A program made the position numbers and the translations under genes. A DNA stretch of 64,000 bases from Octopus vulgaris (lineage: Eukaryota). The stretch lies in contig OX597817.1 of NCBI GenBank assembly GCA_951406725.2, positions 82,336,001 to 82,400,000 on the forward strand, written 5' to 3'. Positions 40,501-43,500 of this stretch are shown in pieces (the first letter of the stretch is position 1; the number at the start of each line of letters is the position of its first letter). The notes beneath the pieces were generated by a model. The model saw only the letters and a list, made by a program, of their open reading frames with translations, was not told the origin of the DNA and did no database searches.

Positions 40501-43500
40501 GGGAAAGTGTTAGTCAAGATTAAAATGTGTGTACAAACGAAAAATTGTCTTGGGAGAAAAAAACGGAAGTAAACATTTGCTGATAATCAGTATTCCTATA
40601 CTCGCTTCTAGACAATTAGATTTCTTTGACGCCAAATATCTAAGAAAGGAGACAACACATAGAAACTGCTTTAACAGTGAAAGACCTATTTTGCCCAAAA
40701 CCATCGTGCATAAATCCTTATTAAGCCCTTAAGTTGATATGAAGAAACAAAATGTACGTATAGCTCAGGGGAAGATACACACTGAGCGTATATATATATA
40801 TATATATCTATATATATATATATATATATATATATATATATATATATATATATATGTTTCCTTGGTTTTGTGTTTATGTTTTCGTTTCTCATTGTGTTCG
40901 ACGTTTTTTGATGTCCTGTACCCATATATGCATGTATATATACATGTAGATGTAGGTACATACATGTATGTATGTATATATGCATATATTTTATTTATTA
41001 ATTTGTTATCATATGATGGAACGCACGCATCCATTTCTAAGTAAATTTGTTCTCCCTCCTTTCCTCAAATAATACTTTAATTGTTCCACGTCCTCGCGTT
41101 GCTGTGTTTTTTTCTGTATTTTCTTGTTTGGATTAACTTTAATATATATATATATATATATATATATATATATATATATATATATATATATATATATATA
41201 TATATATATATATATATATATATATATATATATAATACTTAGAGAATGGAGAAACATACTTAAATCAATAGAACATCAACTACCACGTCCTACTTTAATA
41301 CACCATTACATATCAGTAAAGGCATTATACAAAATATACAGTAAGAGTAAGTAGACAAAGAGATATAAGTATAAAATTTCAAATATAATATGTAATTAAA
41401 TCAAATCTGACAGCTGTTTCGGCAGTGAGGGCAGTCATACCTCATTTAACCTATAAGCTATAAAGGCAGGTATAAATGAGGCATTAACAGGATGCCCACG
41501 GCCTCTTCAGAGAATTAAATTTGTTATAATTGTGATATTATTTAACCATATACATATAAATATAAAAATATAAAAATGTAAAATATAAAAACTTATACAT
41601 AAACTTCATAATGCTACACTATATAATATAATACTCATTGGTACAATAATGGAAGGTAAACAGAACAAAATAAAACAAAATATATATCAGTGTATATATT
41701 AATATTATAAGCACCGATATTATACATATTTGGCTAATAGTTTAAAAAAAAACAAAAAAAAACTAACACATAGGGAGATAAAAAAAAAAAATATATATAT
41801 ATATATATATATATATATATATATATGTATATATATATATATATATATATATATATATATATATATATATATATGTGTGTGTGTACATGTATATATATGT
41901 ATTTATGTATATACATGTATATGTGTGTATATACACACATACATATATATATATAAGCATATTGATAAATAATATATATAAATGCACAATCTTTCACACA
42001 CATGCAGGCGCATATATACACGTGCACCTATAACCATATACTTACATATATATTATTAAAAACATACACATGAATATTCAAGTAATGCCACAACTATATG
42101 ATTGCACTCATGTCTCTCTTTCTTCTCTCTCTCTCTCTCTCTCTCTCTCTCTTTCTATATCTAGCTATCTCACTCCTTGAATATATGTGTATGTACATAC
42201 GTGCATATATACACCCAAATCCACTTACGTATACGCGTATAAATGTATACAAACAACACACCATTACACGTGCGTGTTCATACAAAGTGACACGATATGC
42301 ATATATATCTTTGTTCGTATGTATGTAAGTATGTATGTATATATATATATATATATATATATATATATATATATGTATTATGGAGATGTACTTGCATAGT
42401 AAGTGACCTGATCTGAGATCGTGTCCTGGAACGAAAGCAATTGCAGCATGGAACGTGTTTATAAGCCACTAAAGAAACACAAAACCGTTAGATTCACTTA
42501 AAGATTTAAATTTAATTTGCCAAAATATTTTCGTCGCTTTGAGACTGCGATCTGTTCACTAACAAAACTCCGTGCTGGATCGGAATTTTGTCGATGAACA
42601 GGTCATGGTCTCAAAGCGACGAAAATATTTTAGCAAATTAAATATAAATGTTGAACTGAATCTAACGTTTTTTTGTGTTTCTTAAATGGCTTATAAACAC
42701 CTTCCACGCTGCAATTGTATATATATATATATATATATATATATATATATATATATAGATAGATAGATAGATAGATAGATAGATAGATAGATAGATAGAT
42801 AGAGAGCATATATATACTTGCCTATATATGCACATACAAGCACACACAAACTTAGAAACTTACATATCATGTATATCGTTTGTAACGACAGAGATAATAC
42901 TTACTAGTTTACTGATCCATTGATCCACATTCACTCAAAGACGTATATACATGCGTAACCATATACACTCACATAAACTTACACACTTTCTAAGTTCGTG
43001 GCCCTGGGTGTACGTTTCACTACACAAGTACATATACACATATAGAGATACACTGACAAATTTACATTTTTACATATATGTAAATACATGCATACAAATA
43101 TAAATGTATATATTTCTATATATATTATGGTCTAATAGGGTAGAAAATCGGAGTAATTTCAAGCCAGTGTTCAACGAAGATAAAATTATATGATTGTTTA
43201 ACATGCGTTCCATGAATCCTTTAAAACAGGTTTAGTTCGTAATTACATATTGCCTTCCCATCACCCATAGATGCATAATATACACACACACACACATACA
43301 CACACATGTGTGTGTGCATGAACGTTTCTAGATATGCAAGTATATAATGACAGTCACAAACTTATAGATAACATACATGTATACGCAGAAAAGTCGTATG
43401 TGTATATAAATATATATATATATTTATATATATATATATATATATATATATATATTTATATTTATATACACATACGATTTTTCTGTGTATACATGTATAT

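Follow-up and report, generated by a model that had tools for sequence, protein, structure and literature searches.

A solo intronic repeat copy in Octopus vulgaris carries a type I hammerhead motif with a very long helix II and belongs to an abundant, probably retrozyme-like family

Type I hammerhead ribozymes with a short palindromic helix III act as dimers and mark Penelope-like elements (PLEs) (PMC4209133). Animal retrozymes, described from coral, mussel and axolotl, are low-GC repeats that have been proposed to ride PLEs (PMC7229834). A further study ties retrozymes to the pseudo-LTRs of PLEs and reports dispersed solo monomers, with ~43% of copies in introns in Xenopus; among nine dimers tested one cleaved and eight did not (10.64898/2026.07.22.740005). 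PLEs, for their part, are biased to (TA)n (PMC8557442). Here we analyze a hammerhead motif in a 64-kb window of the Octopus vulgaris genome (the whole stretch of DNA considered: contig OX597817.1, positions 82,336,001 to 82,400,000; coordinates below are those of the window) and compare it with these systems.

The minus strand contains a complete hammerhead core, found by sequence inspection and by a descriptor scan where a preliminary description of this DNA had placed it. Residues C3 to A9 (CUGAAGA, 41510-41504) lead directly into helix II, an interrupted hairpin of 83 nt (41503-41421) that consists of GGC/GCC, GGGCA/UGCCC and a 12-bp inner helix; in the computed fold probabilities it is closed by G10.1-C11.1 and its three basal pairs reach 0.997-0.999. 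Residues G12 to A15.1 follow (GAAA, 41420-41417), with A14 at 41418 and A15.1 at 41417. The latter opens the palindrome ACAGCUGU (41417-41410), which had been reported as stem III: the palindrome is present, but it pairs fully (8 bp) only in a dimer, the monomer having 2 bp and a 4-nt loop. The GUC triplet occupies 41411-41409, and the predicted cut, 41409|41408, agrees with standard hammerhead numbering. Helix I is open, which defines the motif as type I. Its 5′ strand lies at 41511..41521 and its 3′ strand, from the fold computation, at 41398..41408; it starts with UCU/AGA followed by a U.U mismatch, and by hand count 9 of its 11 positions pair, with two U.U mismatches. All three of the core elements reported earlier (CUGAAGA, GAAA and GUC) are therefore in place, the type I core consensus (C3 U4 G5 A6 N7 G8 A9, G12 A13 A14 A15.1, U16.1, H17; PMC3088659) is matched throughout, and the core-adjacent pair is present in each of the three helices (U-A, G10.1-C11.1 and A15.1-U16.1).

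A generic type I descriptor returned a single match in the whole window, which bears out the earlier claim of a canonical hammerhead with a long stem II. The specificity of that descriptor is weak: at least one match was obtained in 14 of 150 local shuffles. Because shuffled sequence also matches, the case for a hammerhead depends on hairpin, palindrome and repeat evidence taken jointly. The 141-nt stretch that holds the motif folds at −38.9 kcal/mol (z −3.92), which none of 200 shuffles equaled, and helix II has a GC content of 47% vs 25% for the surrounding insert. A search with Rfam models, which the preliminary description had proposed as a check, matched no hammerhead: no family reached its gathering score in the window, and the 64 matches by E-value at 40800-42200 included none, the miRNA-like matches among them sitting on TA-rich repeats. 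It is likely that the Rfam models are defeated by an 83-nt helix II. Judged from sequence, the hammerhead motif is real and is of type I with a long helix II. Elsewhere in the window GAAAC stands ~25-30 nt upstream of CUGAUGA or CUGACGA, that is, in reversed order, at 397-403 (+) and 7887-7893 (+).

The motif sits on the minus strand of a non-coding, probably retrozyme-type repeat at 41233..41790 (~560 bp, 25% GC). Tracts of (TA)n flank it at 41142..41234, the 3′ end of the element on the ribozyme strand, and, after an A-run, at 41791..41980. An insert of ~530 bp between (TA)n flanks had been reported; the flanks stand, but the insert itself is longer, at ~41233-41790. No target-site duplication is readable within the (TA)n. 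None of the six frames of the insert holds an ORF, and nor do the ~280 nt upstream of the core. Searches of the rest of the window with blastn and nhmmer found no related copies; there is no second core in the window and there are no terminal repeats within the insert, which at this locus is a solo copy.

The wider family was sought in public sequencing runs. Of 24 runs listed, 20 contain part of the stretch (three coded organisms, nine studies), although in none of the 24 was half of its words reached, and no RNA holder is among them. Eight of the 24 were aligned (X1, X2, X4, X5, X9, X10, X14 and X16), their assignment to RNA or DNA being a guess. Contigs on the insert number 637 in X1 (organism A), 426 in X4 (B), 240 in X9 (C) and 32 in X5 (B). 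Summed depth peaks at 8.1e5 (X1), which is not a copy number yet lies far above any single-copy depth and would correspond to thousands of copies. As far as assembled reads can tell, the insert is a member of a very abundant dispersed repeat, a status that the preliminary description had missed, and since it is, the object of interest is the family and not the locus. In X2 a single 434-nt contig extends over 41319-41737, taking in the core and its flanks, with three substitutions and 19 gap letters; core and flanks therefore appear to move together.

At the end near 41233, one X10 contig meets (TA)n at almost the point where the locus copy does, as for an element whose 3′ end is fixed and which inserts into (TA)n; X5 contigs continue into other sequence. 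A fixed end together with longer or tandem versions would account for this pattern. No tandem joints or stacked ends are listed in the eight aligned runs, from which rows at the A-rich end of the insert, including one joint, were left out. At the other end, an X10 contig extends 174 nt beyond 41699 with no second piece listed, so the family unit may be longer than the insert, or the insert may represent the last part of a larger element. The alignment passed over 41540-41583 and 41738-41780 as repeats, which makes absent cover there uninformative. A drop in depth at 41283-41291 was considered as a family boundary and rejected: contigs bridge it with ~11 extra letters, marking a deletion in the locus copy. 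Pattern scans of viral contigs and of metagenome contigs gave 0 loci each. An X2 contig of 641 nt shares only its ~55-nt terminus with the insert (41225-41279) and is then unlike it, the next minus-strand letters being CUGAUGA; another element may share the 3′ end of the insert, a possible lead to an autonomous partner.

The locus copy differs from its family in several small respects. Compared with the 434-nt X2 contig, the locus copy is missing a single base at each of two sites of helix II and 5 nt from the 5′ strand of helix I, and its apical loop has a different letter at 41459; near the 41233 end it lacks ~7 and ~11 nt that are present in other contigs. Worked through by hand, the family letters would give a slightly better-paired helix II and would set a competing 7-nt block farther from the core. 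Among the variant places listed for X1, X4, X9 and X5, 0 of 29 fall within the 19 core positions, which is not significant (P 0.28), and invariance of the core was accordingly rejected as a sign of selection. One loose end of X9 has C in place of U4, a substitution that natural hammerheads are reported to show (PMC4075628). Two of three helix II variants in the runs guessed to be DNA keep their pair alone; the third (41440) pairs only if its partner at 41481 changes too, and 41481 is itself a listed variant. A change at 41406 breaks the third pair of helix I and is the majority letter in five of the eight runs (X1, X4, X9, X10 and X14), and a change at 41404 likewise breaks a helix I pair; the partners of both are not readable in the runs. 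The locus copy keeps the third pair. In X1 (organism A) depth falls about tenfold at 41463-41500, a fall that X4 and X9 do not share at 41463-41481, suggesting that the 5′ half of helix II is different or truncated in an abundant subfamily.

Set beside animal non-LTR retrozymes (PMC7229834; 10.64898/2026.07.22.740005), the octopus insert shares the type I fold, the 2-bp helix III and the palindromic tetraloop, and likewise its non-coding nature, low GC, many dispersed copies, intronic solo monomers and the presence of PLEs in the genome. Retrozymes as characterized, in the accounts available, have a canonical metazoan type I helix II of ~4 bp, whereas that of the octopus is 83 nt, and the octopus helix I has no obvious loop 1. 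At ~560 bp the insert exceeds one reported size range (150-450 bp; PMC7229834) and falls within another (51-972 bp; 10.64898/2026.07.22.740005). Animal retrozymes are known with tandem units and circular RNA; the octopus insert is known as a solo DNA copy. The hammerheads of PLE pseudo-LTRs (PMC4209133, PMC8557442) resemble it in a short palindromic helix III suited to dimers, a longer helix II and a short helix I, in occurring mostly as single motifs, and in their (TA)n targets. Their helix II of 6-8 bp is nonetheless far shorter, the octopus motif lacks the extra nucleotide that they carry between 9 and 10.1 (PMC4209133), and no RT-EN ORF adjoins the octopus insert. The 83-nt helix II is the sole structural oddity, and the locus is probably another copy of a known kind of parasite in an ordinary place. 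Literature matches listed for hammerheads in octopus or cephalopods include no cephalopod example and no description of a long helix II, although the supplement of PMC7229834 may hold such. One of very many parasite copies, the locus itself matters little; the family matters as a naturally occurring hammerhead whose helix II is very long and in which tertiary contacts from an internal loop, or doing without them, can be tested in a dimer.

The insert lies ~1.2 kb past a splice donor (GT at 40000) that ends a host exon with the second ShKT-like domain (39879..39999, +); no matched exon precedes the next one, VWC-like, at 51192..51311 (+). Both flanking exons are on the plus strand, in keeping with the antisense intronic placement after ShKT2 reported earlier. 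The exons of the window match an uncharacterized Octopus sinensis protein of 1577 aa in 11 pieces at 90-100% identity (cut-off 80%), in which residues 758-764 (7 residues) are unplaced; the 11 kb gap could hold a micro-exon. Pfam places TSP1, three VWA, ShK-like and VWC-like domains on this gene, which spans 4371-56877 (+) and continues beyond the window. Since the host pre-mRNA is read from the plus strand it carries the complement of the ribozyme and no cleavage in cis is possible; because the motif points against the host gene, the insert is likely to be inert toward it. Other repeats in the window include mariner-type transposase fragments (Transposase_1, HTH_48) at 10293-10580, 13538-14223 (−) and 48526-49145 (+), and an interspersed repeat, which we take to be SINE-like, at 39280-39624, 15437-15853 and 56439-56647.

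A nearest-neighbor model favors, for the monomer, a rod that pairs the CUG of the core with the CAG of the palindrome. In all five segments folded, the active monomer fold is disfavored by 5.7-8.5 kcal/mol at 37 °C, a figure that leaves tertiary contacts outside the model and has no positive control; for the construct proposed in the preliminary description (41530-41385) the active fold is 7.5 kcal/mol worse. Joining two active monomers through an 8-bp helix III lowers the energy by 15.9 kcal/mol. The model gives −78.9 kcal/mol for the active dimer vs −80.4 for two inactive monomers and −86.4 for the best free dimer, placing the active dimer 1.5 and 7.5 kcal/mol above them, respectively. The predicted energies rank dimer over monomer and are no proof of inactivity, because the model omits tertiary contacts. 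That the locus might be a still active ribozyme, as had been suggested, finds no support for this copy: it is solo and antisense to the host gene, the model prefers the rod, and letters of helix I and helix II that a close family contig has are missing.

On these observations the insert is probably a solitary copy of a retrozyme-type parasite with an intact type I core, pasted into (TA)n by PLE enzymes and inert to the host. Like animal retrozymes it is an ORF-free, low-GC element, several hundred bp long, that bears a type I hammerhead and has many dispersed copies, and membership among them is likely. Tandem source copies would be transcribed on the ribozyme strand; the palindromes of two cores would join as an 8-bp helix III, with cleavage 3′ of GUC; the released unit would then be copied into TA microsatellites, possibly from a circle, by the reverse transcriptase/GIY-YIG endonuclease of a PLE. 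The locus copy, which has a single core and a few minor deletions, would be a dead end of this process. Toward the end of the window a broken Penelope-like ORF in two frames (62984-63936, +) comprises a C-terminal part of RT and then a GIY-YIG-like part. Its first part matches four proteins of 518-708 aa (E 2e-38 to 8e-34), and its second the C-terminal region of one of those four; the RT and GIY-YIG motifs of the matched proteins were identified by eye, Pfam naming neither RT nor GIY-YIG on them. We found no sequence link between the repeat family and this ORF or any autonomous PLE.

The same broken ORF would also suit a different origin, in which the insert is the 5′-truncated 3′ end (pseudo-LTR) of an autonomous PLE and its hammerhead processes the precursor RNA of that element. 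PLE pseudo-LTRs bear just such type I hammerheads with a small palindromic helix III, mostly as single motifs (PMC4209133); no tandem junction is listed for the eight aligned runs, and the X10 contig continues past the upstream end of the insert. We nonetheless regard this origin as rather unlikely, given that the ~280 nt upstream of the core hold no ORF, that cover in the runs extends over the entire insert, and that A9 directly precedes G10.1, at odds with the feature described in PMC4209133. Much less probable still is a locally useful ribozyme, active at this locus and either cutting an antisense transcript or tuning the host TSP1/VWA/ShKT gene. In its favor, no core nucleotide is altered and helix I retains its third pair, hammerheads of coral and mussel whose helix III has 2 bp cleaved during transcription of single repeats of the genome (PMC7229834), and domesticated intronic hammerheads are known in amniotes (PMC6155905). 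Against this stand the antisense orientation to the host pre-mRNA, the want of a partner core in the window and the energy cost of the active fold (5.7-8.5 kcal/mol at 37 °C in five segments, with no known-active control); moreover, the aligned runs hardly ever show the letters that the locus has at 41271 and 41459, which leaves conservation at the locus unsupported. As for the resemblance to a hammerhead being a product of chance, a GC-rich repeat hairpin beside core-like words, we find this barely credible: the descriptor does match 14 of 150 shuffles, Rfam gives no match and core invariance is not significant, but the core words border the hairpin with no gap, and G10.1-C11.1, the perfect palindrome of 8 nt in helix III and the GUC site complete the layout of the dimeric type I hammerheads of animal repeats (PMC4209133; PMC3088659). 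The retrozyme-type parasite remains the favored reading.

Two features of the family are worth following: its long helix II and a possible editing of its core by ADAR. In X16, guessed to be RNA, 18 of 31 change sites are T>C on the plus strand, that is, A>G on the ribozyme strand, and only one is A>G on the plus strand. The runs guessed to be DNA (X1, X4 and X14) have 6 T>C in 50 (Fisher P 1.6e-5 against X16, in a comparison made without DNA from the same animal). Of the 18 T>C rows 15 were displayed, and 12 are without depth in the three other runs aligned alongside. The A>G sites, which come from few contigs and are not independent, include A15.1 (13 of a depth of 31, three contigs), A14 (one contig), an A of the palindrome and the base after the cut. 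A G lies 5′ of 0 of 12 X16 sites vs 6 of the 32 adenosines of the stretch (P 0.04). ADAR disfavors a 5′ G, and the context of the X16 sites is as expected. Two of the 12 sites recur in X5, from a different study, where T>C accounts for 7 of 26 changes, not significantly more than in the DNA-guess runs (P 0.12); X10, a further run guessed to be RNA, shows no T>C excess (3 of 26).

This burst of A>G suggests ADAR editing of transcripts of the family, core adenosines included, and the skew hints that the family is transcribed. Some X16 sites lie outside helix II and loose ends of an X16 contig carry A>G on the opposite strand; the simplest source would therefore be long dsRNA from inverted copies and not the hairpin alone. 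Such dsRNA is a general source of editing in repeats (PMC5625713). More speculatively, and in our estimation improbably, the 83-nt helix II may serve as a landing arm for ADAR, with editing of A14 and A15.1 switching the hammerhead off and so supplying a block on the re-cutting of circles. Mutation of A14 or A15.1 lowers activity more than 100-fold, in a passage that does not address inosine itself (PMC4075628), and some cause other than self-pairing probably blocks the hammerheads in animal retrozyme circles in vivo (PMC7229834). Editing of A14 and A15.1 is a testable candidate for that block, in an animal with very strong editing. Literature searches found nothing on inosine at hammerhead position 15.1 and nothing joining Penelope, hammerhead, A-to-I and ADAR, and none of the matches listed, judged by title or the start of the abstract, concerns editing of core adenosines in a ribozyme. 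The nearest parallel is the hyper-editing of repeat dsRNA, where the signal from octopus is among the strongest and, in lizard, a Penelope element shows heavy editing (PMC5625713). The octopus repeat resembles that case in its clustered A>G changes in repeat transcripts; it differs from the case as described there in that the candidate edits fall on the catalytic adenosines of a ribozyme.
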